Positions 2,211-55,314 of a stretch of 64,000 nt of DNA are shown one piece after another. The notes under the pieces are model-generated. The model was not told the DNA's origin, searched no databases, and was given only the letters and a program-made list of their open reading frames with translations. Every line of letters starts with the position of its first letter. Position 1 is the stretch's first letter. The position numbers and the translations under genes were made by a program. The stretch is from Bacillota bacterium (GTDB taxonomy: Bacteria; Bacillota; Clostridia; Christensenellales; CAG-138), in contig JAEWUO010000012.1 of the NCBI GenBank assembly GCA_023459335.1, positions 106-64,105 on the forward strand, read 5' to 3'.

Positions 2211-3986
2211 CTAAAAACTATCGCTAATAAACTCAAAAAATTCTACTTCTTTCATTAAAATTTGCGGCGAAAATACACCCATAAAATTATTAATACTACA
2301 AGTACCTATAATTGAAATTTTCACTTGTTCAAACTTACAAATTTCATCATATTCTTCTTCAGAAAAGAATTTTATAAAGTCAACAGAATTATGTTTAAAA
2401 ATATATGTTCCTTTTGATCTTAATTTTATTTCTTTTGGATTTATTATAATATCTTTTATATGAATTATTGGCTCTGGATTTCCTTGTCCCCATAAGAGAC
2501 TATGTTCGCATATATTAAAAATTATATTAAATAAATTATCTTCATTGTTAAAAGAAAAATCAACTTCATAGAAATTCGTTTTAAAATCAATATCTTTTAA
2601 TTTTTCATTTGCATATTTGGTGAGTTTTTCCAAATTTGATGTTTTTATGGAAAAACCCGCAGCGGCGGCGTGCCCCTCAACATATTCCATTAGTTTGCTA
2701 TCTAACAAAAATTCTCTAAAGTTTTTTAATTCATTGTTATCACAATTTCTAATAGAGCCACTTAATACTCCATTATTTTCTCTACCTAATAATGTTGGAA
2801 TTCTAGTTTCCGCACAAATTCCCATTGCACATAATCCCGTTATTGAGCGAGGGCAAGATAATTCATTTCCATTGAGTATTAAAATTTTATTCTCGTCAAG
2901 ACAATTTTCTACAATTTGTATTTTTAGTTGCTCTATGGCTTTCTCTTTTTCTCTATTTTGCTTATTTTTACAGTTAATGCAATTTCTGGCATTTTGCTCA
3001 CCAACCGTTTCTACTTCATCTTCAGCTGCGCCTCTTTTATTGCTAATAATACTTTCCTCACCATTAATAAAGGCTTGCAACAAAAAATCTTTTTGTTCCA
3101 TAGTTCCAACTCTAATTAATCCATTTATTAGAGGTGTGATATAAAAAGCAATTGTTAATGGGGTTAGATTTCCCTTAGTTGAAAATTCTTGAGCTTTCAA
3201 CAGGGCCGCAAAACCACTGTTGCGAATATGTTTTAAACCGTATTTAATAATATAAGCGTTCTCTGGAACCACAATTTGCATCATATCAGAGATTATTGAA
3301 AGTGCCGCCAAGTCTATAAACTCTCCAGCATTGACAGAGAGTTCTTCATAATCTAGAGCCTGAATAAATTTTAATACAACGCCGCCGCCGCTAAGATGAG
3401 GATTTTCATATTGCCCATCAGTACAATTTACAATAACAGCATCTTCATATTGTTCTATATCTGGAATTAATTTATCATTTATGATATGATGGTCTAAAAC
3501 TAATATATCTATTCCGTGCTCTTTTAAGATTTTATGATATTTTATATCATTACTTCCAGCGTCTGGAAGTATAACCAAATTAAATTGTTCATCAATTATT
3601 TCTAAATAGTGACTCTCTAATCCATGGGCTTTACTTTCGTGAATTTTATAAGAAACCTCTCTGTCATAAAAATTTTTTATAAGATTAATCATCATTGCGG
3701 CCGAACATAATCCGTCGGCATCACTATCTTTAATTACAACAATTTTAGAATTATTTTCGATATGTTTTTTAAATAAATTAACTGCTCTTTTCATATTTTT
3801 CATTGTAAAGGGATCTGGACAACATTCAACTCTATCTTGAGGATTGTTTACTAATTCGTATTCACCTAAGTCTTTTATTAAACCTCTAGCCTTCATTAAG
3901 TTGAAGGATATATTGTTTTCCTTATTTTTGATTATTTGCTCATTTTCTTCTTGGGTATATTTTACTTTTACTTTCATCGAAGTCAC
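2211..3986 (-). CDS. recJ: RecJ-like DHH/DHHA1 single-strand DNA exonuclease
   Basis: DSDADGLCSA, LPDAGSND, LVLDHH (DHH motif) and GHAAAAGFS (DHHA1 motif). Confidence 0.8.
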   Translation of the reverse strand: MTSMKVKVKYTQEENEQIIKNKENNISFNLMKARGLIKDLGEYELVNNPQDRVECCPDPFTMKNMKRAVNLFKKHIENNSKIVVIKDSDADGLCSAAMMINLIKNFYDREVSYKIHESKAHGLESHYLEIIDEQFNLVILPDAGSNDIKYHKILKEHGIDILVLDHHIINDKLIPDIEQYEDAVIVNCTDGQYENPHLSGGGVVLKFIQALDYEELSVNAGEFIDLAALSIISDMMQIVVPENAYIIKYGLKHIRNSGFAALLKAQEFSTKGNLTPLTIAFYITPLINGLIRVGTMEQKDFLLQAFINGEESIISNKRGAAEDEVETVGEQNARNCINCKNKQNREKEKAIEQLKIQIVENCLDENKILILNGNELSCPRSITGLCAMGICAETRIPTLLGRENNGVLSGSIRNCDNNELKNFREFLLDSKLMEYVEGHAAAAGFSIKTSNLEKLTKYANEKLKDIDFKTNFYEVDFSFNNEDNLFNIIFNICEHSLLWGQGNPEPIIHIKDIIINPKEIKLRSKGTYIFKHNSVDFIKFFSEEEYDEICKFEQVKISIIGTCSINNFMGVFSPQILMKEVEFFEFISDSF

Positions 3987-12876: not shown

Positions 12877-12950
12877 AATTAATTACCTTCCTTTTCGCCA
12901 CTATGGGCGTTATTTTATTTTTTTGTTAAGTAGTTATGCTACTCAACTAA

Positions 12951-13020
12951 GCTAATACTTGGAATCGAACCAAGAACCAATGCTTACAAGGCATTTGTTT
13001 TACCACTAAACTATATTAGC
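12951..13020 (-). tRNA. tRNA-Thr (UGU)
   Basis: Manual cloverleaf: acceptor GCTAATA/TATTAGC, anticodon arm AATGC-CTTGTAA-GCATT, T arm CTTGG-TTCGATT-CCAAG. Confidence 0.85.
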
Positions 13021-13075: not shown

Positions 13076-13130
13076 TTTTCTTTTGTTCTCTTTCTTTTGT
13101 TCTCTTTCTTTTGTTCTCTTTCTTTTCTTC
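13076..13130. repeat. Tandem 14-bp repeat TTTCTTTTGTTCTC, 3 copies plus a partial copy
   Basis: Direct reading of 13076-13130. The repeat lies between two near-identical promoters. Confidence 0.85.
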
Positions 13131-13139
13131 ACTATAATA

Positions 13140-13168
13140 ATTATATCATATATTTTGAAAAAAGTCAA
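13140..13168 (-). promoter_or_regulatory. phage consensus promoter (duplicate of 13037-13065)
   Basis: TTGACT-17-TATAAT on the minus strand. About 40 bp are nearly identical to the neighbouring promoter. Confidence 0.65.
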
Positions 13169-13170
13169 TA

Positions 13171-13695
13171 CTATAAATAAAATGGGTATATTATAATTGT
13201 TTCGTCTTTTTTCTTTAAAAAACAACCATGAATAGAATTTGCAAATGGGCTTTCTTCATTTTCTACTATTGGAAAAAAACAAAAACACTCGTTTTCAATT
13301 TTATAAGCAATTAATTCTATTATTGGTAATTCTTCTTCTGACTGCTCATTTTCAAATTCATCGCCACTAATAAAATCTTCTTGTTTAACAAGAAAATCAT
13401 TTAACTGCTGAACATCTTCGTCTATTTGGGCGACAATGTTCTTAATACTTTCATTATTTGATAAGGATATTTTTTGATATTCTTCAGCATTAATATTAAT
13501 TATACAATTAACAGCCATAAATCTACTAGCACTATCCCATAGATTATTCTTTTCTACTATATTTTGAATATGATATCCGATAAATTTACCAAATTCCTCC
13601 ATTTCACAGGTTTGAATATTAACAAATCCATCTCTCTGTAGAACAAATTCTTTTATATAATCTAACATTGCTGGTAATATAACTACATTACTCAT
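13171..13695 (-). CDS. hypothetical acidic protein
   Basis: 174-aa ORF with an acidic stretch FENEQSEEELP. Tightly follows the helicase gene. Confidence 0.45.
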   Translation of the reverse strand: MSNVVILPAMLDYIKEFVLQRDGFVNIQTCEMEEFGKFIGYHIQNIVEKNNLWDSASRFMAVNCIININAEEYQKISLSNNESIKNIVAQIDEDVQQLNDFLVKQEDFISGDEFENEQSEEELPIIELIAYKIENECFCFFPIVENEESPFANSIHGCFLKKKDETIIIYPFYL

Positions 13696-18777: not shown

Positions 18778-20004
18778 CTAAACTCTCTCTACTCTTATTT
18801 GTATACGATCAATTACCTTTGTAAATACGCCGGCATATCCATCGCCATTTATCTCATTATAATTTTGTACAAATGGTAAATAAGGTCCATTTAACGTAGA
18901 AACCCTATATACAATTTTATAATTCTTATCTATTGAATCTATTTGAATTGCATCTATCGGAGATCCATTTATACCAGCATATCCATTATTAAAATCATTA
19001 ATGTTATACCCGTTAACCCAAGGTAACCATCGACCTTGTGTTCTAACTCTATATCTAATTTCAATAGGTGATTTAATTCTTATTAAACTTATTGGTTGCC
19101 CTATTATGCCGGCATATCCGTTATCATTATCATTTTGCATATCTGTAATTTCACCAAGCCACCTATTTTGACTATTTACTTGATAAGTTATTGATGGAAT
19201 TGGACTAAAAGAGTTTTGGATATTTTCTGTTAACTTCTCTCCTTTAGAATTGAATACATAATGTTCATTAGTTGCGGCGGCTTTTACTGCATTTGAGAAG
19301 TTAGCAAAAGCTCCAATTTGAGACCTTTCATTATTCCACGACTTTCTAACTCTAAATAATTCATCATTCTCTGGTTGAGTGGACTTAGTAACTACAACCT
19401 CACTATAAAGATTCATATATGACTTAACTTTATTTTTAAAATTGTTCCAATGTGGTAATATATATAATGGACACATTTTATATGGGTGCCTCATTTGATT
19501 TAGAGTATCAGTATTACCAACTTTACCATCTCTTACATTTAGCCAATGAGTGTGTGTATACAATTCGTTTATTGTTAAGTTATTGCTCACAAGTAGAGCT
19601 GCCGCCAACTTAGCCGTCAAATCTTCAGATTTTAAACTTTGAACGTCAACACTATTTCTCATAATACATTCAATTGAGATGGTCTCCATATTTCCTCTTC
19701 CATTACCGTCAGTGGCGTGCCAGCTACTTAATTCTAGTGGTAGGTTTTGCCATATAGAAACATCATCAACATAGAAATGAACCCTAACATCTCCCATATT
19801 ACCATTTACAGTAGCTCTCGTATACTGTTCGGCAGGGGTTGTTGTTGTCGCCACATTTATCCAATCAGTATTATGAATAGTTATGCCGCTTAATCTTCTT
19901 AATCCTCGACTTGGCAATTCTATATTGTTTGGATTTGATACTGTTAATAAATACTGATTTATTTTTAAATCTTTTAATAAATATTCTTTTTGTGGTATTA
20001 ACAT
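18778..20004 (-). CDS. Endolysin: N-acetylmuramoyl-L-alanine amidase (amidase_2/PGRP) plus ChW-type cell-wall-binding repeats
   Basis: ITIHNTD...HFYVDD...WHATDGNGRGN..ISIEC. Three C-terminal repeats of the form RWL..W.N......GYAG..G.PI..I.I. Start moved to ATG 20004, behind the RBS GGAGGGGGA. Confidence 0.8.
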   Translation of the reverse strand: MLIPQKEYLLKDLKINQYLLTVSNPNNIELPSRGLRRLSGITIHNTDWINVATTTTPAEQYTRATVNGNMGDVRVHFYVDDVSIWQNLPLELSSWHATDGNGRGNMETISIECIMRNSVDVQSLKSEDLTAKLAAALLVSNNLTINELYTHTHWLNVRDGKVGNTDTLNQMRHPYKMCPLYILPHWNNFKNKVKSYMNLYSEVVVTKSTQPENDELFRVRKSWNNERSQIGAFANFSNAVKAAATNEHYVFNSKGEKLTENIQNSFSPIPSITYQVNSQNRWLGEITDMQNDNDNGYAGIIGQPISLIRIKSPIEIRYRVRTQGRWLPWVNGYNINDFNNGYAGINGSPIDAIQIDSIDKNYKIVYRVSTLNGPYLPFVQNYNEINGDGYAGVFTKVIDRIQIRVERV

Positions 20005-20005
20005 A

Positions 20006-20221
20006 TTAATGTCCCCCTCCATTATGCATGGAATTAATTCGACACTCACTCTCTATACTTTCAACACGAGAATTTAAAGTGCAAATCTTTTCTTCAATTG
20101 ATTTATTCTTTTGAATAATTAATTCTAACTCCATTTTTGAAACTGAATTTTTTTCAAGTTTATCTAAACTTTTAGACATCGCCTGTAGATTAGATAACAA
20201 TTCTTGATCTTTCTTACCTTC
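20006..20221 (-). CDS. small lysis-cassette protein, predicted exon 2 (coiled-coil tail)
   Basis: Open frame EGKKDQELLSNLQ...NGGGH begins directly after the predicted 3' splice site. Its stop lies 1 nt before the amidase ATG. Confidence 0.45.
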   Translation of the reverse strand, partial: EGKKDQELLSNLQAMSKSLDKLEKNSVSKMELELIIQKNKSIEEKICTLNSRVESIESECRINSMHNGGGH

Positions 20222-20285
20222 CTGTTATGTTATTCAATTATTCGTTAGATAATTAAAGAACTGCTTATTTAATAAGCTATAAAGG

Positions 20286-21368
20286 TTAACAGAATCCTCT
20301 TGAGACTATATTGCGAGCCGCATTAATGTCTCGATCTAATTCCAAACTACAACTACACTTGTAAACTCTATCTTTTAATGTCAATTCAAGGTTTCTCTTT
20401 CCACATCTTGAACAATCCATTGAAGTATATGCTGGATTAACTTTAATGAAAATTCTTCCAAATTTCTTACATTTCCACTCTAAGGCTATTATAAACATAC
20501 CTAGTGGAGCAATAATTCTTAATCTTCGACGATTTTTATTTGACATTAAAATTTTACCATTTGTTAAATCTTCAATAGCAATATTATTTTCTATTGCTAA
20601 TTGAGTAGTTGTTTGTTCTATAAAATCTTTCTTTAAATTTTCTAATCTAAAATAAGCTTTGTCAAGTTTTTCTTTCAATTTCTGATAATTGTTTGAACCT
20701 TTGGTTTTCTTGCTTAATTTAGACTTTAAAGAATTAATTCTATAAAATTGTCTAAGAACAGTTCTTGGATAGTTTATTTTAATTCCATTTGATGTCGTCA
20801 TGAAATCTTTTATTCCCCAATCAAGACCTAATTGATTTTCTGTTTTTTCTAATGGTTCAATATTTACTTCACAAGAACCGCTAATATACCATTTTCCATA
20901 GGAGCAAGTATATCTTGGCTCTGTTATTGTTTTAATATTGTATTTGTTTAGAAATGTCATATCAATTGGACACTTTCTTCCTTTTTTAACACCAGAAAGA
21001 TTAATTGTATTGTCATCATTTATTTTAATTGTTTGACTAGCAATACAGAATGATTGTTTATTTGGATTATATTTGTGAAATTTTGGCGGTCTCCCGTTCT
21101 TGTTGTAAACTCTTTTCCAAGTTTGAGAATATTTCTTTGCAATATCATTATATATTCTTTTTGGAATATCTTCTCTAATGAATTCCTTCATTAAATCTTG
21201 AGGAGAAGAACCTTTGATGCTATATGTTCCACATATAATTTTTTCTCCAGAGTTTTTATATTTTTCAACAACATAATTCCACATTTCATGAGAACACTTA
21301 CAGAAGTAAAATAATTTTTCTTCTTGTTCTTTGTTTGGATAGATTCTGACTTTGAATCCTATTTTCAT
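20286..21368 (-). CDS. tnpB: TnpB (IS200/IS605-family OrfB, RuvC-like RNA-guided nuclease)
   Basis: LGLDWGIKDF, IAIEDLT and DRDINAARNI form the RuvC triad. Zn ribbon CSRCGKR...YKCSC. NPAYTS motif present. Confidence 0.85.
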   Translation of the reverse strand: MKIGFKVRIYPNKEQEEKLFYFCKCSHEMWNYVVEKYKNSGEKIICGTYSIKGSSPQDLMKEFIREDIPKRIYNDIAKKYSQTWKRVYNKNGRPPKFHKYNPNKQSFCIASQTIKINDDNTINLSGVKKGRKCPIDMTFLNKYNIKTITEPRYTCSYGKWYISGSCEVNIEPLEKTENQLGLDWGIKDFMTTSNGIKINYPRTVLRQFYRINSLKSKLSKKTKGSNNYQKLKEKLDKAYFRLENLKKDFIEQTTTQLAIENNIAIEDLTNGKILMSNKNRRRLRIIAPLGMFIIALEWKCKKFGRIFIKVNPAYTSMDCSRCGKRNLELTLKDRVYKCSCSLELDRDINAARNIVSRGFC

Positions 21369-21390
21369 TTATATCACCTCCTTTTAATTA

Positions 21391-21419
21391 ATTATACCAC
21401 AAAATTAATTAAAAGTCAA
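21391..21419 (-). promoter_or_regulatory. phage consensus promoter driving tnpB (inside the intron)
   Basis: TTGACT-17-TATAAT with extended TGTGG, followed by the RBS AAAGGAGGTG. Confidence 0.65.
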
Positions 21420-21779
21420 TAGGTGAATGTTCTCTTAACCTCTCGGCTAAGCACAGGTCATATCACAATCTTTCTTTTAGTAATTAAAAGTTAAGATTCC
21501 CTCCGCTACCTAGACTACTAGGATACATGACCGTCGAACTTTACTCATATTACCTAAGATAACTTAGAGTCTTAGCTGCTGATTATCTCTACCTAATAAT
21601 TTTTAAACATTCACACTTGAAATTTCTTTCTATGTTGTAGTTTATTAGTCTAATAAGATTTTCCAGCAATTCAAAGGGTTTTCGACATACATTTCTGTAT
21701 GAAGTGACTATTTCCTTAATTATATTAAAATATATTAATGCAGTCTATAGCGAAACGCATATATGATAATTAAGTTCTA

Positions 21780-21887
21780 ATCATAAGATTTTTTGCCAAG
21801 TGCATTTTTGACATTGAATATTGTAACCAGCATACCTATTAAAGTTGCTGATGTAGAAATTATTAAAGTTAGTAAATTAGTAGACAT
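21780..21887 (-). CDS. small lysis-cassette protein, predicted exon 1 (single TM helix)
   Basis: MSTNLLTLIISTSATLIGMLVTIFNVKNALGKKSYD with GGAGG upstream. The start codon choice is uncertain because an overlapping 5-codon ORF uses the better-spaced ATG. Confidence 0.4.
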
Positions 21888-21984
21888 TAGACATTTTAAC
21901 CTCCAATTTTCTTTTTTATATTGGATAAAGTTTCTTTAAGTTTTATTTGTGCTAATTTTAGTTTAGCAAGAAAATCATTCATTA

Positions 21985-22263
21985 TCAATCACTCTCCCCT
22001 TCCTTATCGTCTACAGCAGTAGTTGTTTTTATTGTTGGATTATCTATAACTATTGTATCCGTTTTATAAAAAATAAAGAATAGTAGAAAAATTACAATAA
22101 TTGTTATACAAATCGTTCTACACATTGTTATTTTGAATTTTTCCACACTCCTTGTATTTTTTTCACTTAAATTGTCTTTAGTAATTTCAATTAAAGTATT
22201 ATTGATTTTACATAAAGTTTCCAATGTTTCTTGGGCTAATTGGAGTTCTTTTTCAGTTGCCAT
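21985..22263 (-). CDS. small membrane protein
   Basis: TM segment ICITIIVIFLLFFIFY. Lies within the lysis cassette. Confidence 0.5.
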   Translation of the reverse strand: MATEKELQLAQETLETLCKINNTLIEITKDNLSEKNTRSVEKFKITMCRTICITIIVIFLLFFIFYKTDTIVIDNPTIKTTTAVDDKEGESD

Positions 22264-31959: not shown

Positions 31960-32163
31960 TTGATACTATATACAACAGAAACTTGTCCAAAATGTAAAGC
32001 TTTAAAATTTTTATTAGATAATAAAAATTGTAAGTATGAGGTTGTCACAGACCAAAAAATATTACAAGAAAAAGAATTTACTGTTGTCCCAATGCTTGAA
32101 ATGGATGATGGTAGAGTTTTGAATTATGCGGCGGCGGCAATAGAAATAGGAGGTATTAAATAG
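31960..32163 (+). CDS. nrdH: glutaredoxin-like protein NrdH
   Basis: MILYTTETCPKCKALK contains a CxxC redox motif. 67 aa, directly upstream of nrdD. Confidence 0.75.
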   Translation: MILYTTETCPKCKALKFLLDNKNCKYEVVTDQKILQEKEFTVVPMLEMDDGRVLNYAAAAIEIGGIK

Positions 32164-32690
32164 TGCATATTAATTTTAAATTAAACAAAAACTTTGCAAC
32201 CACATTTAACAAACTCTGTGAAAAATATGGTGAAGAATTTGAATATCTAAATGGTGTTCATAAAACACAATTAGATGACACAGAGTTTATTGATCACTTT
32301 ACGGCTGACAACAAGAATATTTCCGATAATACGGTTGACCCAAATGCTAACCAAAAGTTCAAAGATATAGTTTCCCTAAGGGCTGAAAAGGGAAAGAGTA
32401 GAGATAAACTTCTAGCAATGAACAAAATATTTTATGAAGTTCAAAAAGAATATGGATTCCAGACAGCTAAGGAATTTTTGGAAGATGAGTGGAATGGTGC
32501 TACCTATTTGAATGATTTTGTGACAGCGTCATTCATCCCTTACTGCTTTAGTTATGATCTAACTAGATTATGTACTGAGGGATTGTTTATGCTTGGGGAT
32601 AATTACAATAACTTGCCGCCAAAACACCTAGACACATTTAATGATGATGTGGTGGAATATGTCTCATGGAACGCAAACAGGACCTCGGGT
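32163..32690 (+). CDS. nrdD: anaerobic ribonucleotide reductase NrdD, exon 1
   Basis: N-terminal NrdD-like region. The frame degenerates after ...NANRTSG (ggt, U last). Confidence 0.7.
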
Positions 32691-33785
32691 AGAAATATGC
32701 TGTGCCCTTTTATTTCTTTTCCACTAACCAGTGGTGTTGCTTATGCAGCTAACGGGGAAAACTAAGTATATGAATAATATATATGTCAATCCCGTGGGAA
32801 TTATTAAAAAGAGTATTTATATTATAACAAATAGTTTAAACAATAAAGTTTATATAGGACAATCAACCGAACCCGAGAGAAGATTTAAAGAACATTGTCG
32901 CAAGGGAGAGAGTTTGATTTCAAAAGCTATTAAAAAATATGGAGTTGAAAATTTTTCTTTAAATATATTAGATTGTGAAATTCTTAATTATAATGAAAGA
33001 GAAAAATATTGGATAAAATATTATGATAGTAAAGTACCATTTGGATATAATATTTTAGAAGGTGGCAATTGCCCTCCTAACTATAGCGGAGATGAACATC
33101 CAAATGTAAAACTTACAGAACAAATTGTTCTTTGTTTAAAAAATGACTTACTAAAAACAACTATTTCATTATCTCAATTAGCAGAAAAATACAATATCTC
33201 AAAAAGACAAGTAATTAGAATTAATAACGGAAGCAGTAGAGCGAAATTAAATGAAGAGTACCCCATTAGGAGAGTTCCAAATAATAATGGTAAGTTAACA
33301 ACAGAAGATATAGATATTATTATCGAATTGTTAAAATACTCCTATAGAGCTAATGGCGATATAGCTAAAGAATACGGGGTTGAAGTTCATACAATTTCTA
33401 AAATAAATAATGGAACTTGTCATAAGAGAGATAATATCCAATATCCAATAAGAAAATGGAAAAGTTGTGGAGTAACGCTTTTTACTTATGAAAATATTAC
33501 AGAAATTATAGATTTATTACTAAATTCCGAAGAATCAATTCGTAATATAGCAAAAAAGTATAGTGTGAGTCATTCAACTATTAACAATATAAATAAAGGA
33601 GTATCAAAAAGATATTATCGAGAGGGAGTAATTTACCCTTTAAGAACTCTTTAATAAAGCCTGTATCGACTATCCTCGCTAAGAGGAGTACAATTGCTAT
33701 TTGGTATGTAATTGGAAAGAGAAATCCTACAGTAAATACTGTAGTAAAAGATAGTCAGTCTTAATGGAAACATTAAGAGCCTACG
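32691..33785 (+). mobile_element. Group I intron 1 of nrdD with GIY-YIG ORF
   Basis: G at 33785 precedes GCA GTA GGA (AVGLADY...). The 3' part (33655-33770) is homologous to the 3' part of gyrB-like intron 2 (GTATCGACTATCCTCG, GATAGTCAG). GCTAACGG box present. Confidence 0.7.
32771..33654 (+). CDS. GIY-YIG homing endonuclease with three NUMOD1-like HTH repeats
   Basis: IYIITNSLNNKVYIGQS..RRFKEH..YGVENF..REKYWI. Repeats such as LAEKYNISKRQVIRINNG occur x3. Confidence 0.8.
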
Positions 33786-35753
33786 GCAGTAGGATTAGCA
33801 GATTACATTATATGGTCTTATTATTTTTGGAAGAATGATAAGGCAAGTGGATTATTTTGGAAAAAAGAAGATGGTGAGTTTATTGACATCTCTGAAAAAG
33901 CACTAAGACAAAGTTTTCAGAAGATTTGTTATAGACTGAACCAGCCCTTCCTACGCATTGATCAATCAGCATTTACCAATTTTTCTGTTTTTGATAGGTC
34001 TTACTTAGTAGAATTATTTGGTACAAAGGTGTTTCCAAATGGAGAACTCGGCATCACAATGATAGAAGGGTTTTTAGAACACCAAAAAATATTTTTAGAA
34101 GAGTTTTCTAGAATTAAAGGTGAAAATCTCTTTGGTTTTCCAGTTGTAACAATTTCATTGTTATATCAAGATGGGAAATTTGTTGACGAAGATTTTTCCA
34201 GATGGGCTTGTGAACACAATAGAAAATGGAATGATAGTAATCTATTTATTTCTGGTGAACTTGGGATTTTGAGTTCTTGTCCTTTAGATGGTGATACGGA
34301 GATCGTCTATTGGGGAGATAGACTAAAAAGATTTTTCTTGTCATCAATAGAAGACGTTTATAATAATCATAGTAGAGATGGTAAAATACCGTTAATAAAA
34401 ACTTTTTCAAATGGACAAATTATAAACTGTAGAATAAACAAATTTGATATCGCTCCAGAATATGAAATTACTTTAGCAAATAACGCAAAAATTAGAACCA
34501 CTGCAGATCATTTAAATAAAGTTTATGGAAGAGATTATGTTAGAACAAAAGAATTAACAACTGATGATTTTCTTCCTTATGGATTAAATAAATATATTGG
34601 TAGCGATAGTTTATCTTACGAAGAAGGTAAAATTGTTGGGGCTTTTCTAGGGGATGGCTCTTTTATAGAAAATGGGATTGTTCTAAGTCTAAATTCAAAT
34701 ACAGATAGAGATTTTATGGATTGGTTACATGACTATGTTCCAAAATATTTTGGAGGAAAATGTATAGAGGATGAAAAAACCTCAACTATTAGTGGGGAAA
34801 AAAGTTGTATTAATTTTAGAATTATTTCAAAATATTTAAAAGGATTAATAGAACAATGTGTTTTAGGAAAAAACGCTTTAACAAAGGAAATCAACTTGAT
34901 AGTATTAAATTATTCCGAACAATTTAGACAAGGATTAATAGATGGATGGCAAACTGCTGATGGTGGAAACAATAATAGAATTTATTCTTCCTCTAAAAAA
35001 CTTATAGATACAATGGTTGTTGTTTTTACTAGTTTAGGAATTGTAACTAGGATTGATGAAGATAATAGAGAAAGTAGACTTGGGAAAAATACTTGTTACA
35101 CTTTACGATTTTACACTCCAAATAAAAAGAAAATAAAAGATCTTTATATAGCAGAAGAAGATGTTCTGTGGATAAAAATTAAATCTATCACAAGATGTAG
35201 TAGTAAAAAAAGAAAATCTTATTGTTTAGAAGTATTGGATGATGTGGAGCCAGTATTTACACTAGGGAATGGTATTATTACACATAATTGCCGCGTCACT
35301 AACGATACCAAGCAAATGCCGGCGTTCATTAACTCAATAGGAGGAACAGCATTATCAATTGGTTCTGTAAAAGTTAATACTATTAACCTAAAGAGAATTG
35401 CCATAGAAAGCGGCGGCGATAAGGATAAATTTATGGAAATTCTTGAGAAAAGAATGATATTAGTGATGAAAGTTCTCAAAATTGTAAGAAGAATTATAAC
35501 TAGAAATATAGAAAAAGGGCTTTTAACTAACTATGTTGATGGTTGTATTGATATGGAGAAACAGTTTTGTACAATAGGTATTAATGCAATGTACGAAGCT
35601 ATAAATTATTTTAAACTAATCAAAACCGATGAATTTGGTTATAAATCTTATTCTGATGAAGGACTAGTTTTTGCGGCAAATATTTTAGATAAAATGAACA
35701 AATTGAAAGATGAATTTCCAGTAGATTATCAACAAAATATAGAATGTATCCCT
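33786..35753 (+). CDS. nrdD: NrdD exon 2 (includes an intein)
   Basis: AVGLADYIIWSYYFW..., SAFTNFSVFD, ...GILSS|intein|CRVTND..., ends NIECIP (cct, U last). Confidence 0.75.
34278..35288 (+). mobile_element. Intein (337 aa, class 1, LAGLIDADG endonuclease domain) in NrdD
   Basis: Begins CPLDGDTEIVY and ends GNGIITHN|C. IVGAFLGDGSF and GLIDGWQTADGG motifs. Confidence 0.8.
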
Positions 35754-36099
35754 AAAAGAACTGGGGCGTAGTAGTGTAAGCTACTAATGAAAACTTTCTC
35801 TGATTGACTTGGAAAACCTGAGTGGTTGACAGGGCGGAAGGATATATTATAGTCCACCGTGAACGACTAAGTGAGAAAGCGTCTTAAAAAGATGATGCGA
35901 TAGTCTGAACTCTACTGTAACATCAAAGTAGAGAGTAAAGTTTAACGACTTTACCGCCATATGTAAATATAATTATAGGAGAAATAGATTATTATTAATA
36001 ATATAAAAAATTCCAGCAGTAAAATAATTGGTGAGGTTATAAATAAATATAATATTGAATTTAATCAACCAGAACGTATGGTCATAAAGTAACAGATTG
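35754..36099 (+). mobile_element. Group I intron 2 of nrdD (ORF-less, 346 nt)
   Basis: Lies between ...ECIP and GETCAKIFCKKDF (NrdD consensus iPaEs..k.a.kD). Last nt is G. Contains GATAGTC and AACGACT boxes. Confidence 0.65.
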
Positions 36100-39502: not shown

Positions 39503-39850
39503 TTGAATTATAATCATGATAGTATAGTTTCTTTGGGGGCAGGTAGAGCCTTTAGAGAAAAGTTAGGAATGTATCTCTCAGCAGATAAACAAGAAGCTAT
39601 CAATCTTGGATTAAGGGAATTAATAGTAAATGTCCAAGATGAATTTGAGGTATATAAACCAAAAGATCCCACTCTAAAGATTTCTTTAAATACAAATTTA
39701 AGAGAAATCATCGTAGAAGATAACATGAGAGGAATTCCGTGTGGCGTTAGAACCGATGGAATGAACTCTCTTACTGCGGCGTTTATGATACCACATAGCG
39801 GAGGCAAACATTCCGAGGGGGCTTATTCAAGTGCCATAGGAATCAACGGT
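39503..39850 (+). CDS. type IIA topoisomerase subunit B (GyrB/ParE-like), exon 1 (GHKL ATPase start)
   Basis: LRELIVNVQDE (GHKL N-box-like), EDNMRGIP, HSGGK...AIGING. Exon ends in T. Confidence 0.7.
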
Positions 39851-40748
39851 TAGAGTATCCTGAGCCGTTGTAAAAGGACTTTAATTGCTGGAAGAATCTT
39901 AGAGCCTAATAAACTACAACATAAAGAGCGATCTTAAGTGTGAACGTTTGAAAATTATTAGGATTGACTAATCAGCATCGAAGCATCTAATAAATTTCCA
40001 TTGATAAAAAAAGGGGGAAAGTAAAATGACCTGAATTTTATCTTGTGGAGCAGAAATTTTAATAGATACTGAAGATTTTAATAAAATTGATAAAAAAGGT
40101 TGGTATTTATCTCAAGGAACTCATGATAACAACAATAGAAGAAAAACTAAATATGTCCTACATGATGATTATGGCAGATTACATAGGCATATTTTAGGGC
40201 TAAATCTAAATGAACGAAAAGATTTAGTTGTTGATCATATTGATAGAAATGGGTTGAATAACCAAAAAAATAATCTACGAATAGTAGATACATCAATAAA
40301 TAAAAAAAATCAAAGTACAATAAAAAATAACCAATTAAATTTTAATGGCATAAGCTTAGAGTATAATAAAAAAGCTGATTATTTTAGATTTAAAGTTTCA
40401 TATAATGAGATTAAGTACAAACCAAAAACTAAAACTTTCTCTTTTGGAAGTTACGATAATCCTCAAGAAGCTTTAAAGGCAGCTATTTTATTTAGAATAG
40501 AAAAAATGAAAGAAAATGGTTATTTATTAGATGAACGTTCAACGACTATTGAAAATGAATTAATTAATAATGTCAATATTAATATAGAGCAGATATTAAA
40601 TATTGATTTAAAAAAATTAATCATGAGTAAAGTAGGCTCAAGCGAGTCGAAATGGGTCTTAGAAAAGATATAGTCTAAACTCTATAGAATATATAGAGCA
40701 GCACGTAATGGTGCGGGATTGGAGTAGCGAACCAATTTGAAATGTTTG
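39851..40748 (+). mobile_element. Group I intron 1 of the gyrB-like gene with HNH-AP2 ORF
   Basis: The flanks rejoin as AIGING|EGAKIVN (consensus GxHGVGAsvVN). The intron ends in G. Its 5' part is homologous to the IStron ribozyme module. Confidence 0.7.
40026..40673 (+). CDS. HNH-AP2 homing endonuclease ORF with an in-frame TGA at codon 3
   Basis: Strong RBS AAGGGGGAAA, then ATG ACC TGA ATT..., with the frame open from 40035 to 40673. LVVDHIDRNGLNNQKNNLR (HNH) lies upstream of the first conventional start at 40254. Confidence 0.6.
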
Positions 40749-41867
40749 GAAGGAGCAAAAATTGTCAATCACACAGCGAAGTGGTTAGAAGTTCAAGTTA
40801 AAAGAGAAGGAAAAATTCATTTCCAAAGATTTGAATCTAATGACGAGGGAGCATTCTCAGTTACCGAAGTTGAAATAAAGGGGAATACAAACGAAACGGG
40901 AACAATGATTAAATACGTACCAGACTCTAAGGTTTATGGCGATGCTTTTATAAACATTGAAACCTTAAAAGAGATGTTGAAAGAGATGTCTTATTTTACC
41001 AAAGGATTAAAAATAATCCTAAGTGTGGATGAAGAATATGTTATAACTTTCTATTCTAAGAATGGATTAATTGATGGTTTATCTGGACAAAACCCTCTTT
41101 CAAAACCATTCCATTTTCTTTATGAAACTGAAGATTGTAAAGTTGAATTAGCCTTACAATGGGTTGCAAAGGGCGGGCAAATCAAAGGCTATGCCAATGG
41201 ACTTCATATGAGAGATGGCGGTGCTTTTATGTCTGGGTTTAAATCTTCTTTAACTAGAAGCTTTAACTCTTTAATGAAAAAGAAATTTGGTGGCGACCAA
41301 ATTAGAAGTATGTTAGATGGATTTGTTTCAGTTAAGGTTAGAATGGGGGAATTCTCAAATCAAGCTAAAACTGCTTTAGCAAATGCTGAGGCTAGAACAG
41401 CAACCTCAGCGGCAATATCTCAATTATTAAAAGAATACTATGAATCTAATCAAGGTGTTTTAAATACGGTTGCTGAAATATTAACAAAATATGAAAAAGC
41501 AGAAAAGGCGGCCGAAAAAGCCAGAGAAGAAGTTCTTAATATTAATAAGGAAATCACCAAAAAAAGAAAGCAGAAAATTGTTGCTTCTGATAAATTAAAA
41601 GATGCTGAGGTTCTTGGGCAAGATTCAATTTTATTGGTTGTGGAAGGTGATTCGGCGGGTCAAGCCGCTTTATTAGCAAGAGATACTAAAAAGTATGGTG
41701 TCTTAATGGCACAAGGAAAGTTTCTTAACTCTTGTGAAAAAGAAGAAGAAAAGGTTTTAAAAAATAAAATTGTTGAAAGATTAATCCTAGCATTAGGACT
41801 AAATGTTGGGAATTATAATCCAAAAACCCTAAGGTATGGAAAAGTTGGAATTTTTGTTGACGCAGAT
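40749..41867 (+). CDS. type IIA topoisomerase subunit B-like, exon 2 (transducer plus Toprim start)
   Basis: EGAKIVN...; LLVVEGDSAG (Toprim EGDSA); ends IFVDAD. Confidence 0.75.
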
Positions 41868-42738
41868 GAATAACATTGTCTGGAAATGCTTTTGCTCTAT
41901 TTGGAGCGGTCTATTTTAAAATAGGCTAACGGTATCAGAGAAATAAGACCTCCTATTGGAACTACAAGAGATAATAGGAATAATCTAAGGACGAATAATC
42001 TGACTAAGAAACCCTAAACCTGAAAATGGTGAGATAAAGGGAATACCGTACCAATCGTAAATTATTCCTCTTTAAAAGAGGTGATAAATATTTTCAAAGT
42101 ATATTGTATAACCAATTTAATTAATAATCATAAATATATAGGAATAACTTCACGTTCATTAGAAATAAGATTTTCAGAACATTGTTGCCATCCTCGTACT
42201 TTAATTTATTATGCAGTTAAAAAGTATGGAAAAGAAAATTTTATAATAGAACTAATTGAAGATAATGTGCCTAATGATTTAATAGATGAAAAAGAAAGAT
42301 ATTATATTAATAAATATAATACCTTAAAACCCAATGGATACAATTTATCAACAGGCGGGATTAGTAATAAAGGTGTTAATGAAGAAACAAGACAACATCT
42401 TAAAGAAATTAATTTAGGTATTAATAATCCTCGTTGTAATAAATATATTTTACAATACGATTTAAGTAATAATTTTATTGCAAAATATGGCTCAGCAAGA
42501 GAAGCTGGACGTGCATTGGGTAATGAAAATAAACGTGGAGCAATCTTAAATTGCTTAAATAAAAAAACAAAAACTTCACAAGGTTATATTTGGAAATATG
42601 AGGAATAATTAAGCGAAGGGTGTATCGACTATCCTCGTGAAGGGGAGTACCTATACTATTAATATGTATTGGGAAAGAGCATTCTCTCATTAGAGAGTAA
42701 AATATAGTCAGACCCAAGTTGAAAAATTGGATAAGTCG
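41868..42738 (+). mobile_element. Group I intron 2 of the gyrB-like gene with GIY-YIG ORF
   Basis: The flanks rejoin as DAD|DDGSHI (consensus DADvDGsHI). U is at the exon end and G at the intron end. The 3' part is homologous to nrdD intron 1. GGCTAACGG box present. Confidence 0.7.
42081..42608 (+). CDS. GIY-YIG homing endonuclease
   Basis: VYCITNLINNHKYIGIT..IRFSEH..YGKENF..KERYYI. Confidence 0.8.
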   Translation: MINIFKVYCITNLINNHKYIGITSRSLEIRFSEHCCHPRTLIYYAVKKYGKENFIIELIEDNVPNDLIDEKERYYINKYNTLKPNGYNLSTGGISNKGVNEETRQHLKEINLGINNPRCNKYILQYDLSNNFIAKYGSAREAGRALGNENKRGAILNCLNKKTKTSQGYIWKYEE

Positions 42739-43110
42739 GATGATGGAAGCCATATCGCACTTTTAATAATCGCAGCGATTTTCAGAATTTGTCCAGAGCT
42801 AATAAAGGAAAATCGTTTAATGTGGTTGAAAGCTCCACTTTTTTCAAAGTTATCTAAGGGAAAGAAGAAGTACTTTTATACACAGGAAGAGTTAGATGCC
42901 GATGATAGTGTCGGAACAATCCTTCGTTATAAAGGAATTGGTTCTATGAATTCTGAAGATATGGAAGCCTCAATGTTTTCACCAGAATTTCAGAGAATTG
43001 AAACATTAGAATATAATGAAGAATTCGACGAATTATTTAATTCTTTAATGGGAAAAGATGTTGCTTTTAGAAAAGAATATGTTTCTGAAAATATTGACTT
43101 TTCTGAATAG
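42739..43110 (+). CDS. type IIA topoisomerase subunit B-like, exon 3
   Basis: DDGSHIALLIIAAIF...YKGIGSMN (consensus KGLGEM-like). Confidence 0.7.
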   Translation, partial: DDGSHIALLIIAAIFRICPELIKENRLMWLKAPLFSKLSKGKKKYFYTQEELDADDSVGTILRYKGIGSMNSEDMEASMFSPEFQRIETLEYNEEFDELFNSLMGKDVAFRKEYVSENIDFSE

Positions 43111-52133: not shown

Positions 52134-52409
52134 ATGAAAATAACAAATGACATAATCATAAAAATAAATGAGCTTTACTTAGAACTAGGGGTAAAAACAA
52201 AGGTGGCAAAAGCTATTGGTTGTTCCCCTTCAACAGTAACAAAATATTTAATTAAAGACTTTGTTCCTATAAAAGATATTAATGCAAAAGAGACCAAAAC
52301 AATTGTATTACCTCCAAAAACTACAATAGATTGGGATAATATTTCTTGTGAACTAACAGAACAAGAAATTTTAGATTTAGATGATATAAAAAAGAAAATA
52401 GTTCTATAG
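52134..52409 (+). CDS. small HTH protein
   Basis: VKTKVAKAIGCSPSTVTKYL is HTH-like. Confidence 0.5.
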   Translation: MKITNDIIIKINELYLELGVKTKVAKAIGCSPSTVTKYLIKDFVPIKDINAKETKTIVLPPKTTIDWDNISCELTEQEILDLDDIKKKIVL

Positions 52410-52410
52410 A

Positions 52411-52439
52411 TTGACTTTTAGTAAAAAGTATGGTATAAT
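52411..52439 (+). promoter_or_regulatory. phage consensus promoter (upstream copy of a 50-bp duplication)
   Basis: TTGACT-17-TATAAT. 49/50 identical to 52530-52580. Confidence 0.65.
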
Positions 52440-52534
52440 TATATTATAGTAAAAAGACATTACAGCAAATAATAATTAAAACAATATTTGAATTGATTTA
52501 TTTATAATGTCTTGGTACTGAGAAGCTCTCTAGA

Positions 52535-52954: not shown

Positions 52955-53026
52955 GGAGTTGTAGTCTAATGGTAGGACGCTCGCTTTGGGAGCGAGAAGG
53001 TCACAGTTCAAGTCTGTGCAATTCCA
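52955..53026 (+). tRNA. tRNA-Pro (UGG)
   Basis: Acceptor GGAGTTG/CAATTCC, anticodon arm CTCGC-TTTGGGA-GCGAG, T arm CACAG-TTCAAGT-CTGTG. Confidence 0.85.
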
Positions 53027-53197
53027 TACAGTTAACATAAGACATTTCAGCAACATTTGAACTTTTCTGTTAAAAAAGTATTCAAATGTCTAGCACAACT
53101 AACTGTAACCCATTGTTAGCCTAATCGCAGTTACGCTAACATAACTTGAAACATCAGATAAAAAATTAAGTTAGAATTAAAGCTTAAAAACAACATT

Positions 53198-53276
53198 TAG
53201 ACACATCAGCTACTTAAAAACAAGTTAAAGTTTAACTATTAAGTATGGTAAAAGGAAATTAAAGAGAGTGTCTAGA
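53198..53276 (+). ncRNA. spacer hairpin element b (AGACACATCAGC...GTGTCTAG)
   Basis: The conserved 5' box pairs with the conserved 3' box GTGTCT (53267-72). Confidence 0.3.
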
Positions 53277-53507
53277 GTAAAAACCTTCAATTTTCCTTTT
53301 CTTAGTAGTTATTCGATTAATACTCTTCTTTACACCCAAAGAAAGTATTCCTTAATGGTTTCTAGGTTAAAACGACACGCCGTAAGGTTTTTACCATGGT
53401 TAGTCGTCCAATAATCGGAGTTAGGCTCAAATCCTAGAGTAAAATGGTTAGTCTTGCAACTAAACCGGGCTTGGCACTTTCTCGAAAAGAGAAAGCCTAA
53501 CAAAAAA

Positions 53508-53584
53508 GACACGTCAGCCAGTTAAAAAACAAATTATGAATTATTTCTAGTGAGCACTATTTGTAAAACCTTAGTGTCTTGGAA
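53508..53584 (+). ncRNA. spacer hairpin element c (AGACACGTCAGC...GTGTCTTG)
   Basis: The 5' box pairs with GTGTCT (53574-79). Its start lies 120 nt upstream of tRNA-Ile. Confidence 0.3.
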
Positions 53585-53627
53585 TATTAAGTTTTACGTG
53601 CAAGATTTAGTGTTTGCTAAGAAATAT

Positions 53628-53701
53628 AGAAACATAGTTCAGTTGGTTAGAGCACACGTCTGATAAGCGTGAGGTCGATGGTTCGAGTCCATCTGTTTCT
53701 A
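53628..53701 (+). tRNA. tRNA-Ile (GAU)
   Basis: Acceptor AGAAACA/TGTTTCT, anticodon arm CACGT-CTGATAA-GCGTG, T arm GATGG-TTCGAGT-CCATC. Confidence 0.85.
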
Positions 53702-53708
53702 CTTATAT

Positions 53709-53801
53709 GGAGTAATAAGCCTAACGGTAAGGCGGGCGGTTGCTAACCGTTATTAGCCACAAGATCGTGGTGTGTAGGTTCAAGTCCTACTTACTCCGCC
53801 A
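53709..53801 (+). tRNA. tRNA-Ser (GCU), class II, with encoded CCA
   Basis: Acceptor GGAGTAA/TTACTCC, loop TTGCTAA, long variable arm, T arm GTAGG-TTCAAGT-CCTAC, G-CCA tail. Confidence 0.85.
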
Positions 53802-53804
53802 AAT

Positions 53805-53875
53805 GCGATTATCGTATAATGGTAGTACTCCCGTTTTCCAAACTGGTAGTCTGGGTTCAAATCCCAGTAGTCGCT
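53805..53875 (+). tRNA. tRNA-Gly (UCC)
   Basis: Acceptor GCGATTA/TAGTCGC. Anticodon arm CCCGT-TTTCCAA-ACTGG has one C:T mismatch. T arm CTGGG-TTCAAAT-CCCAG. Confidence 0.75.
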
Positions 53876-53917
53876 TAATCACTTTATTGTGATAACCTCC
53901 TAAGACAATATACATAA

Positions 53918-53998
53918 AGGCACATCAGCAATCTTAATTCTTTTAATTGAAAAGAATATAATTACAACTTGCGGTACGATAAGCTTGCGTGCCTAGAA
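53918..53998 (+). ncRNA. spacer hairpin element d (AGGCACATCAGC...GTGCCTAG)
   Basis: The 5' box pairs with GTGCCT (53989-94), with compensatory changes relative to elements b and c. Its start lies 121 nt upstream of tRNA-Ala. Confidence 0.3.
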
Positions 53999-54038
53999 TC
54001 GCTTATCTACAAGGGCTGTCAAGATTGTAATTATATTT

Positions 54039-54111
54039 GGGGAAATAGCTCAGCTGGTAGAGCACTTGGTTTGCAACCAAGCGGTCGAGAGTTCAATTCT
54101 CTCTTTCTCCA
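54039..54111 (+). tRNA. tRNA-Ala (UGC)
   Basis: Acceptor GGGGAAA/TTTCTCC, anticodon arm CTTGG-TTTGCAA-CCAAG, T arm GAGAG-TTCAATT-CTCTC. Confidence 0.85.
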
Positions 54112-54118
54112 CTTATAC

Positions 54119-54190
54119 TGCGGCGTAGAGAAACGGTATCTCATCAGACTCATTATCTGAAAATAGTTGGTTCGACTCCAGCCGCCGCAA
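54119..54190 (+). tRNA. tRNA-Met/Ile2 (CAU) with U at position 37
   Basis: Acceptor TGCGGCG/CGCCGCA, anticodon arm TCAGA-CTCATTA-TCTGA, T arm GTTGG-TTCGACT-CCAGC. Confidence 0.75.
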
Positions 54191-54284
54191 TAAATTTGAG
54201 GATTAGTCTATACATTGTAATGTGTTGCAATTGCTGTAAGTAAAGCAGCTAATTTGCGATCGTTGGCTATTGCTCAAATTAAAA

Positions 54285-54356
54285 GACCCCTTAGTCAAGC
54301 GGTTAAGACGACGCACTTTCTATGCGTAAACAGGAGTTCGACTCTCCTAGGGGTTA
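54285..54356 (+). tRNA. tRNA-Glu (UUC) with U at position 37
   Basis: Acceptor GACCCCT/AGGGGTT, anticodon arm ACGCA-CTTTCTA-TGCGT, T arm AGGAG-TTCGACT-CTCCT. Confidence 0.75.
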
Positions 54357-55189: not shown

Positions 55190-55236
55190 AACCACAGGGT
55201 CGTTGGTTCGAGTCCAACAGGGTGAGCTAGATTAAA

Positions 55237-55314
55237 GCAAAAGCTTTGTGTTGGTGGTATTACGATATTGCCAACGCAAAAGCTTTGTGTTGGTGGTATT
55301 ACGATATTGCCAAC
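55237..55314 (+). repeat. Perfect tandem duplication of a 39-bp unit, each unit forming an 11-bp hairpin with a UACG loop
   Basis: GCAAAAGCTTTGTGTTGGTGGTATTACGATATTGCCAAC x2. Confidence 0.9.

Follow-up and report, generated by a model that had tools for sequence, protein, structure and literature searches.

A small gene of a phage lysis cassette in the 64,000-nt stretch of DNA analysed here (contig JAEWUO010000012.1 of the Bacillota bacterium assembly GCA_023459335.1; hereafter, the window) is split by a 1,558-nt insert composed of a group I ribozyme, an intact tnpB gene and a conserved 3' RNA region. We put at roughly 0.75 the probability that this insert belongs to the IS200/IS605-type (group A-like) IStrons, as a compact, TnpB-only member that resides in an uncultured phage of a low-GC Firmicute. 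Coordinates are positions in the window; the element, its exons and the adjacent amidase gene all lie on the minus strand. Covariation, Pfam matches and vacant alleles bear out a sequence-only reading of this DNA, which had proposed that a group I ribozyme and an IS605-family tnpB interrupt, in frame, a small gene beside the endolysin gene. The new points are the spread of such IStrons through phage genes and the presence of an internal promoter that belongs to the element itself.

The split lysis-cassette gene and its vacant alleles

The element (20222..21779; first letters TAGAAC, last letters ACATAACAG) lies between two open frames that are separated by exactly 1,558 nt, and its previously proposed coordinates and contents were confirmed. 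Exon 1 (21780..21887) comprises 36 codons and encodes one transmembrane helix; as an open reading frame (ORF), it stops at a TAG formed by the first three nucleotides of the insert. Exon 2 (20006..20221) is an open frame of 71 codons closing with TAA, which is separated by 1 nt from the ATG (at 20004) of the endolysin gene (18778..20004), an N-acetylmuramoyl-L-alanine amidase assigned by Pfam to Amidase_2. The final five nucleotides of exon 1 (21784-21780) are ATGAT, which resembles a transposon-associated motif (TAM). When joined in silico, the exons are in frame and encode a 107-aa protein, which matches phrog_1863 over its full length, junction included.

The contiguous intron-less homologue on which the sequence-only reading had staked its proposal was found. 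Protein P0001 is 99% identical to the spliced product over 100% of its length and is encoded on 10 independent metagenome contigs (L001-L010), which represent vacant alleles and share the gene order 117-aa gene, 92/101-aa gene, 107-aa gene and 408-aa amidase gene. In alignment A1, the vacant sequence ...TA(C/T)GA(T/C)-GAAGG... corresponds to ...TATGAT-TAGAAC...ACATAACAG-GAAGG... in the window, and aligning the window exons with the vacant contigs places the insert between ...TATGAT and GAAGGTAAG.... Shifting either boundary by one base in either direction ruins the match to the vacant alleles. Since the boundaries cannot slide, the last letter of the exon is U, the last letter of the insert is G, and there is no target duplication; the 10 vacant contigs thus fix the junctions as predicted from group I rules. 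The element lies directly 3' of a TTGAT-like motif (ATGAT), and its transposon ends coincide with the splice sites.

Neither the spliced 107-aa product (tblastn) nor 25 kb of the window (megablast) matched any deposited phage, and the phage of the window is without a cultured relative.

Ribozyme, tnpB and 3' RNA

The 5' 346 nt of the element (21434..21779) form a Twort-like group I ribozyme extending from P1 to P9, as evidenced by covariation, by a table of P1 pairings and by the minimum free energy (MFE) fold. The core stops at 21434, upstream of the tnpB promoter, and the interval 21779-21420, in which a core had been expected to fold, has no meaningful ORF. P2 (21701-21686), P3 (21678-21673 / 21504-21499), P4 (21669-21664 / 21581-21576), the P5 domain (21660-21585), P6 (21575-21539), P7 (21534-21527 / 21461-21453), P7.1 (21523-21509), P8 (21498-21467) and P9 (21451-21434, with a GAGA loop) were assigned. 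P2 to P9 are backed by covariation, and P1 features a U.G wobble.

Covariation was assessed in alignment A3, which consists of the 5' parts of 11 elements, i.e., that of the window and 10 others from viral and metagenome contigs carrying related tnpB genes. RNAalifold found P2, P3, P4, the P5 domain, P6, a P7.1-type hairpin and P9, with compensatory changes at 31 of 50 pairs; P7 was added afterwards as a pseudoknot. The resulting structure, which has 58 pairs including the P3/P7 pseudoknot, is paired in 95.6% of the alignment cells, against 33-40% in controls in which the partners were slid by 1-3 columns. Changes on both sides occur at 33 pairs of the proposed structure and at 3-9 pairs of the slid controls, and none of 500 shuffles attained the observed score. 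P9 is a 7-bp hairpin with a GNRA loop, the stem of which covaries and differs in nearly every subfamily. Folded alone, 21700-21430 yields P2, P4-P6, P7, P7.1, P8 and P9 (MFE, z = -1.85).

In P1, exon UGAU and intron UA pair with the internal guide sequence UAGUCA (21710-21705). The guide sits 1-4 nt ahead of P2 in all 16 elements examined and pairs with exon positions -4 to -1 and intron positions +1 to +2/3. A U.G wobble occurs at the 5' splice site in all 16, in an unchanged register and flanked within P1 by base pairs on either side. The target covaries with the guide: GAU/GUC in L031 is replaced by GGU/GCC in L013 and L014, and at position -4 the window has U-A, L026 has G-C and L039 has C-G. 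An initial P1 candidate, which paired UAUGAU with AUCAUA (intron nucleotides 14-19) and placed an A-U pair at the splice site, was dropped in favour of UAGUCA, which lies beside P2, gives U.G and covaries. Searching for the best P1 helix without constraints gave results too noisy to be of use.

The P1 loop contains stem P1a (21774-21766 / 21723-21715) and, within it, a subterminal hairpin, GCGTTTCGC (21750..21758), which is invariant in all close copies, while the P1a stem around it covaries. By analogy with IS200/IS605 biology (PMC4227781), this left-end hairpin is a candidate site of TnpA recognition.

BLAST searches with 21532-21697 retrieved the Twort nrdE and phage 812 recA introns as homologues. 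The Twort nrdE intron, which carries I-TwoI, is 78% identical over 120 nt. The resemblance to an intron in the gyrB-like gene of the window, previously put at about 80% over about 105 nt, is real, and amounts to 76% over 111 nt (21564-21674 vs 39880-39990); the P3-P6 core is common to the ribozyme of the element and the first insert of that gene.

The only ORF of the element is tnpB (20286..21368), which is intact and encodes a protein of 360 residues with the Pfam domains HTH_OrfB_IS605, OrfB_IS605 and Cas12f1-like_TNB. The protein aligns over its full length with ISDra2 TnpB (8EXA/8BF8/8H1J; E 4e-23), and the RuvC D-E-D residues, located in GLDWG, AIEDL and DRDINA as previously noted, align to GVDVG, GTEHL and HDRDEN of ISDra2 and are conserved in all TnpB copies. 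The dN/dS values (nonsynonymous to synonymous substitution rates) range from 0.15 to 0.26 between copies at different insertion sites, indicating from sequence comparison that tnpB is under purifying selection.

Transcription of tnpB would start from a promoter located just downstream of the ribozyme core. TTGACT, a 17-nt spacer and TG-n-TATAAT (21419-21391) are followed by AGGAGG (21382-21377), a ribosome-binding site (RBS), so that promoter and RBS together span 21377..21419. With 11 of 12 consensus matches and the upstream TG, this promoter is the best-scoring one in the region. The consensus promoter and RBS had been recognised earlier but ascribed to the phage; they are carried in every copy, including those in other phages and those devoid of a ribozyme, and analogous promoters occur in distant relatives. 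Judged by its sequence and distribution, the promoter is of the sigma-A type and is the element's own.

Only 64 nt separate the tnpB stop codon from the end of the element. Alignment A4 and RNAalifold delineate here an omega-RNA-like scaffold (20222..20321) consisting of stem A (20321-20302), inside the 3' end of tnpB; stem B (20299-20281), which spans the tnpB stop codon; hairpin 1, GCUUAUU-A-AAUAAGC (20278-20263); hairpin 2 (20256-20233), with the invariant loop UAACGAA; and a tail, UAACAUAACAG (20232-20222), which reaches the 3' splice site, i.e., the right end of the element. Compensatory changes are found at 10 of 19 pairs among 10 elements. The tail, (A)GUAAYAUAACAG, terminates exactly at the junction; the terminus is UAACAG in all close copies and ACACAG, AAACAG or UUACAG in relatives, and is always CAG. 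Subterminal palindromes are present at both ends, GCGTTTCGC on the left and GCTTATT-A-AATAAGC (20278-20263) on the right. The omega RNA of IS605 elements and of Clostridioides difficile IStrons is located at the tnpB 3' end, and the flanking DNA provides the guide (PMC8612924; PMC10690162). Because IS605 omega RNAs take their guide from flanking DNA, the predicted guide, and hence the target, is the first 16-20 nt of exon 2, GAAGGTAAGAAAGATCAAGA (20221-20202), beginning with GAAGGTAAGAAAGATC.... The earlier proposal of an exon-2 guide fits both this published biology and the conserved 3' RNA, which reaches precisely to the 3' splice site.

The element could be a dead or decaying insertion in which the ribozyme no longer splices, the 107-aa gene being a disrupted pseudogene that the phage tolerates. 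Decayed copies do exist elsewhere, as L024 lacks the ribozyme core and L022 the whole ribozyme; in addition, the inverted-repeat (IR) stem is weak, and the z-score of the single-sequence fold is only -1.85. We nevertheless consider decay very unlikely, as every core helix of the window copy is intact and agrees with the covariation model, the two exons are open and remain in frame with each other, with 99% identity to the vacant alleles, and tnpB is intact and under purifying selection.

Copies of the element at other sites

TnpB proteins 74-94% identical to that of the window are encoded at no fewer than nine further insertion sites, all of which follow an NGAT motif. Full-length nucleotide copies, featuring 80-93% identity, are present in L011, L023, L025, L026 and L027. 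Across the family, the target motif is ATGAT (six elements), TTGAT, AAGAT or TGGAT; the 3' flanks are all different and unrelated. Removal of the element restores a long ORF in 10 of 12 cases, and the Pfam domains of the restored host genes include RecJ/DHH, RuvC, Y1_Tnp, GH25 and glutaredoxin-like domains. For instance, the copies in L011 and L025 interrupt a RecJ/DHH-like gene (5' flank GAAGAT), and those in L027, L026 and L023 interrupt a RuvC-like gene (TATGAT), a glutaredoxin-like gene (TGGAT) and a 130-aa gene (AATGAT), respectively. Two further copies lie in L029 (GATGAT) and L035 (TTGAT). More distant IStrons, the TnpB proteins of which are 49-54% identical to that of the window, split a GH25 lysozyme gene, structural genes and a major facilitator superfamily (MFS) gene.

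Insertions also occur close to the split 107-aa gene. L007 (807-928) carries one in the amidase gene of the same lysis cassette (5' flank AAAGAT), and L001 (1-119) one in the 92-aa gene just upstream. In closely related phages, three family insertion sites (the 92-aa gene, the 107-aa gene and the amidase gene) thus lie no more than about 700 bp apart in a single lysis cassette; the L001 and L007 loci were picked for carrying the 107-aa gene, and only nearby insertions are visible in them.

This distribution bears on an alternative, namely that the element is a mobile phage group I intron of the ordinary kind, with TnpB simply standing in for a protein-only homing endonuclease, and that it homes to one site without being a transposon. 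The absence of tnpA from all copies would suit such an intron, as would the close kinship of the ribozyme to introns carrying homing endonuclease genes (HEGs) in the same phage and in Twort-like phages. Near-identical elements are, however, found in at least nine unrelated genes that have only the 5' NGAT in common and unrelated 3' flanks, which is the insertion signature of IS200/IS605 elements and not of single-site homing, and conserved hairpins are kept at both ends. Moreover, classical HEG introns encode a protein endonuclease directed to one cognate site, whereas tnpB is the only ORF here and the sites are many. We therefore regard an ordinary homing intron as unlikely, and favour an IStron.

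Some copies are rearranged. In L024 (254-2228), as in L034 and L036, a copy in which the ribozyme core is deleted (nt 199-373) lies, after the 5' flank AATGAT, within an IS200-type tnpA gene, which matches Y1_Tnp with an E value of 5e-40 once the element is removed; in L024, a 65-aa N-terminal remnant of a second tnpB comes next. Within this gene pool there was therefore an IS605 element with tnpA that itself served as a target of insertion. In L025 (3659-3733), where L011 continues into exon 2 of the RecJ-like gene, the right end of a full element (...ATATAACAG) is joined to a piece of a tnpB 3' end; this arrangement, at which the contig ends, is either a nested insertion or an assembly join. 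In L012 and L030, a tnpB gene 53% identical to that of the window resides in a plain IS-like context, with no ribozyme upstream of tnpB (at 3001) and with a GCGCCGGCGC hairpin directly 3' of TTATGAT. Within one tnpB lineage, some copies are therefore part of an intron and others are not.

L022 (2191-3391) retains the promoter, tnpB and the right end only, and lacks the ribozyme and the left end; it is intergenic, downstream of an unrelated ORF, and may be a decayed or a recruited tnpB. Recruitment could be the general rule, TnpB having been enlisted by the phage for cutting competitor phages or host DNA, or for RNA-guided regulation, so that the intron only makes the cargo harmless and the element is no longer selfish. 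The intergenic promoter-tnpB-right-end module of L022, devoid of a ribozyme, the conservation of a strong internal promoter, and the TnpB genes scattered across deposited lytic phage genomes would fit such a role. Among the latter, Staphylococcus phage phiSA12 and Lactobacillus phage 3-521 have intergenic TnpB genes that are annotated as transposases and are not evidently intron-borne. The guide, however, is set by the right-end flank and differs at every site, which is the outcome expected of a selfish element and not of a dedicated weapon, and no fixed target is evident. To recruitment we accordingly give the least credence of the alternatives, and retain the IStron assignment.

Classification, proposed mechanism and significance

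IStrons have been studied in Clostridioides, Clostridium and Bacillus chromosomes, the CdISt1-type IStron of Clostridioides difficile reportedly having been described by Braun in 2000. The window element shares most features of group A IStrons, represented by CdISt1 in C. difficile and relatives (Tourasse 2014, PMC4227781; Zedaveinyte 2023, PMC10690162). These include a Twort-like group I ribozyme at the 5' end, upstream of a co-oriented tnpB; insertion immediately after a TTGAT-like motif, with U as the last letter of the exon and no target duplication; a P1 U.G pair flanked by base pairs on both sides; a left-end hairpin within P1; a ...CAG terminus that is both 3' splice site and right end; a region at the tnpB 3' end that is, in the window, a putative omega RNA; an intact tnpB with tnpA lost; and many copies in unrelated genes. 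The lack of tnpA, which the sequence-only reading had called unusual, is the usual state, its loss being common among IStrons (PMC4227781; PMC10690162). In contrast to the published group A elements, members of the window family reside on uncultured phage genomes, in replication, recombination, lysis and structural genes. The window element is also shorter (1,558 nt, with no tnpA remnant, vs 1,760-2,213 in the published set) and features a consensus internal promoter directly upstream of tnpB. The target motif is mostly ATGAT, which is one position from TTGAT and is not in the published list.

The phage location had likewise been called unusual. Phage IStrons were already known from Clostridium botulinum, although only of the IS607 type (PMC4227781). 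These group B elements, CbISt3 and CbISt4 of phages c-st and D-1873 (PMC4227781), are similarly phage-borne and combine an IA2-type ribozyme with tnpB. They differ in belonging to the IS607 family, in having a serine recombinase and GG-ending targets, and in featuring G as the last letter of the exon, long IR stems rich in A and U, and CGG at the terminus; the phages that carry them are plasmid-like prophages, unlike the phage type of the window. Literature text searches returned no report of IS605-type IStrons spread through phage genes. With ISDra2 TnpB and its right-end omega RNA (Karvelis 2021, PMC8612924), the element shares full-length protein homology, the D-E-D residues, a TTGAT-type left motif and, by prediction, a guide derived from the DNA flanking the right end; ISDra2 differs in having tnpA and no intron, and in its second zinc pair.

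Twort-type HEG introns (Twort nrdE with I-TwoI, phage 812 recA, and the gyrB and nrdD introns of the window) have a homologous P3-P6 core (76-78%), reside in phage protein-coding genes and follow the same U and G splice-site rules. Their ORFs, in contrast, encode HNH, GIY-YIG or LAGLIDADG enzymes, each of which finds a single site through protein contacts, whereas the ORF of the window element lies after P9 and encodes a predicted RNA-guided nuclease, and the element occurs at many sites.

The window includes further interrupted genes. The gyrB-like gene (39503-43110, plus strand) is in three pieces, and its two inserts carry an AP2-domain-like ORF (40254-40673) and a GIY-YIG/NUMOD endonuclease ORF (42081-42608). 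The anaerobic ribonucleotide reductase gene nrdD (32163-35771, plus strand) is interrupted twice: a GIY-YIG endonuclease ORF (32731-33654) probably lies in another intron, and an intein bearing a LAGLIDADG domain is encoded within the downstream piece (34029-35771). A 45-nt repeat (33657-33701 and 42616-42660, plus strand; 80% identical), located 3 and 8 nt past the stop codons of the two GIY-YIG ORFs, probably represents a 3' intron segment common to both. A stereotyped promoter, ATTGACTTTT-N-TGnTATAATTATATTATAGTAAAA, occurs at about 30 sites on both strands of the window (e.g., 52400-52462 and 13123-13178); copies are on the minus strand below about 27 kb and on the plus strand above, a layout suggestive of divergent transcription units. 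Seven tRNA genes are clustered at 52955-54356 (plus strand), and one lone tRNA gene maps to the other strand (12950-13020). A 39-nt unit is tandemly duplicated in perfect register at 55234-55311 (plus strand; 97% identical).

Several observations weigh against a group A-like IStron that is functional in the way proposed below. Splicing, the omega RNA and nuclease activity are all predicted from sequence. No family copy has tnpA, and a search of the 64-kb window with the L024 Y1 transposase returned noise only; no transposase that would take the element to new sites has thus been found in them. The IR stem, AGAAC/GUUCU, has 5 bp, was equalled by 267 of 300 shuffles and is minimal in comparison with the 6-10 bp found around the IS part of published elements. 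A search within the window subfamily found no stem above chance, while relatives (L013, L014, L031, L016 and L038) have stems of 10-14 bp with compensatory changes at the homologous position. The short stem of the window element thus offers no ready means of bringing the distant 3' splice site to the core. Between P7 and P3', the element has a single P7.1-type hairpin (21523-21509) in place of the P7.1 and P7.2 of IA2 introns, unlike group A IStrons; two are present in its relatives L013, L014 and L031, as in Twort. The terminus is ACAG, while that of published group A elements is TCAG (a consensus of eight elements). The zinc ribbon noted earlier in TnpB is present, although its second pair is CxC and not CxxC throughout the family (CSRC...CSC).

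Rfam likewise detected no group I intron or omega RNA family, either in the whole window at the gathering threshold or in 20000-22000 at E <= 10, and the covariance-model scan proposed with the sequence-only reading thus returned no match to the insert. Rfam release 15 also missed, even at E <= 1, the control introns of Twort nrdE (L020) and phage 812 recA (L021), which are annotated split phage genes carrying intron-encoded endonucleases; the Twort intron self-splices. The Rfam result is therefore uninformative here, and negative Rfam scans are not to be trusted for Twort-type phage introns with large ORF insertions.

The vacant alleles also pose a difficulty. Although they encode an identical protein, all 10 (L001-L010) are altered synonymously, be it within the ATGAT motif (to TACGAT or TATGAC) or within the initial 16 nt of the target, and none combines ATGAT with a perfect predicted target. 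L003, for instance, has a perfect target next to TACGAT, L001 has TATGAC, and L005 has TATGAT and four target mismatches. The known vacant alleles may therefore not be cleavable; the changes may represent neutral divergence or escape.

The data suggest the following scheme. Transcripts of the lysis operon would include the whole element, and the guide UAGUCA would pair with exon UGAU, placing a U.G wobble at the 5' splice site, while the terminal G would be used for splicing. The predicted spliced junction joins AAATCTTATGAT to GAAGGTAAGAAAG and would restore the 107-aa ORF, so that the insertion would be harmless to the phage. A second transcript, starting from the internal promoter downstream of P9, would lack the ribozyme and could not splice; it would provide the tnpB mRNA and a 3'-end omega RNA made of the stems at 20321-20222 as scaffold and about 16-20 nt of exon 2 as guide. 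Such a ribozyme-less transcript would avoid the published conflict between splicing and guide production. TnpB and the omega RNA would then cut alleles in which ...TGAT directly precedes GAAGGTAAGAAAG, the predicted target being ...TCTTATGAT-GAAGGTAAGAAAGATC. Cleavable alleles might be provided by a co-infecting relative with a vacant copy or by excision of the element, and recombinational repair off the occupied genome would copy the element in, resulting in RNA-guided intron homing or retention. New sites might be reached through an IS200-type TnpA acting in trans on the conserved end hairpins, with reverse splicing as a possible alternative.

At somewhat less than even odds, we suggest that phage TnpB-only IStrons are true RNA-guided homing introns. 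During co-infection, exon-2-guided TnpB would cut the vacant allele of a related phage and drive in the element together with flanking markers, much as in T4-type marker exclusion but in a programmable form. With its internal promoter, the element would make omega RNA independently of splicing, and new NGAT sites would perhaps be reached without a transposase of the element's own, by TnpA in trans or by reverse splicing through the P1 pairing of 4-6 nt, which covaries with the target.

Homing is classically measured in phage co-infections, and the family offers natural occupied and vacant alleles of one gene as well as several neighbouring insertion sites in closely related phages. That IStron TnpB may drive "intron homing" after tnpA loss has been stated as an untested idea (PMC13565253); the compact architecture, with its own promoter, and the natural alleles make this question directly testable. 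The family is also relevant for the discovery of small TnpB/omega RNA pairs and for phage annotation, in which split genes are easily called "transposase" plus fragments. By means of such introns, predicted guide-RNA nucleases of the TnpB type can spread through essential phage genes, apparently without harm.

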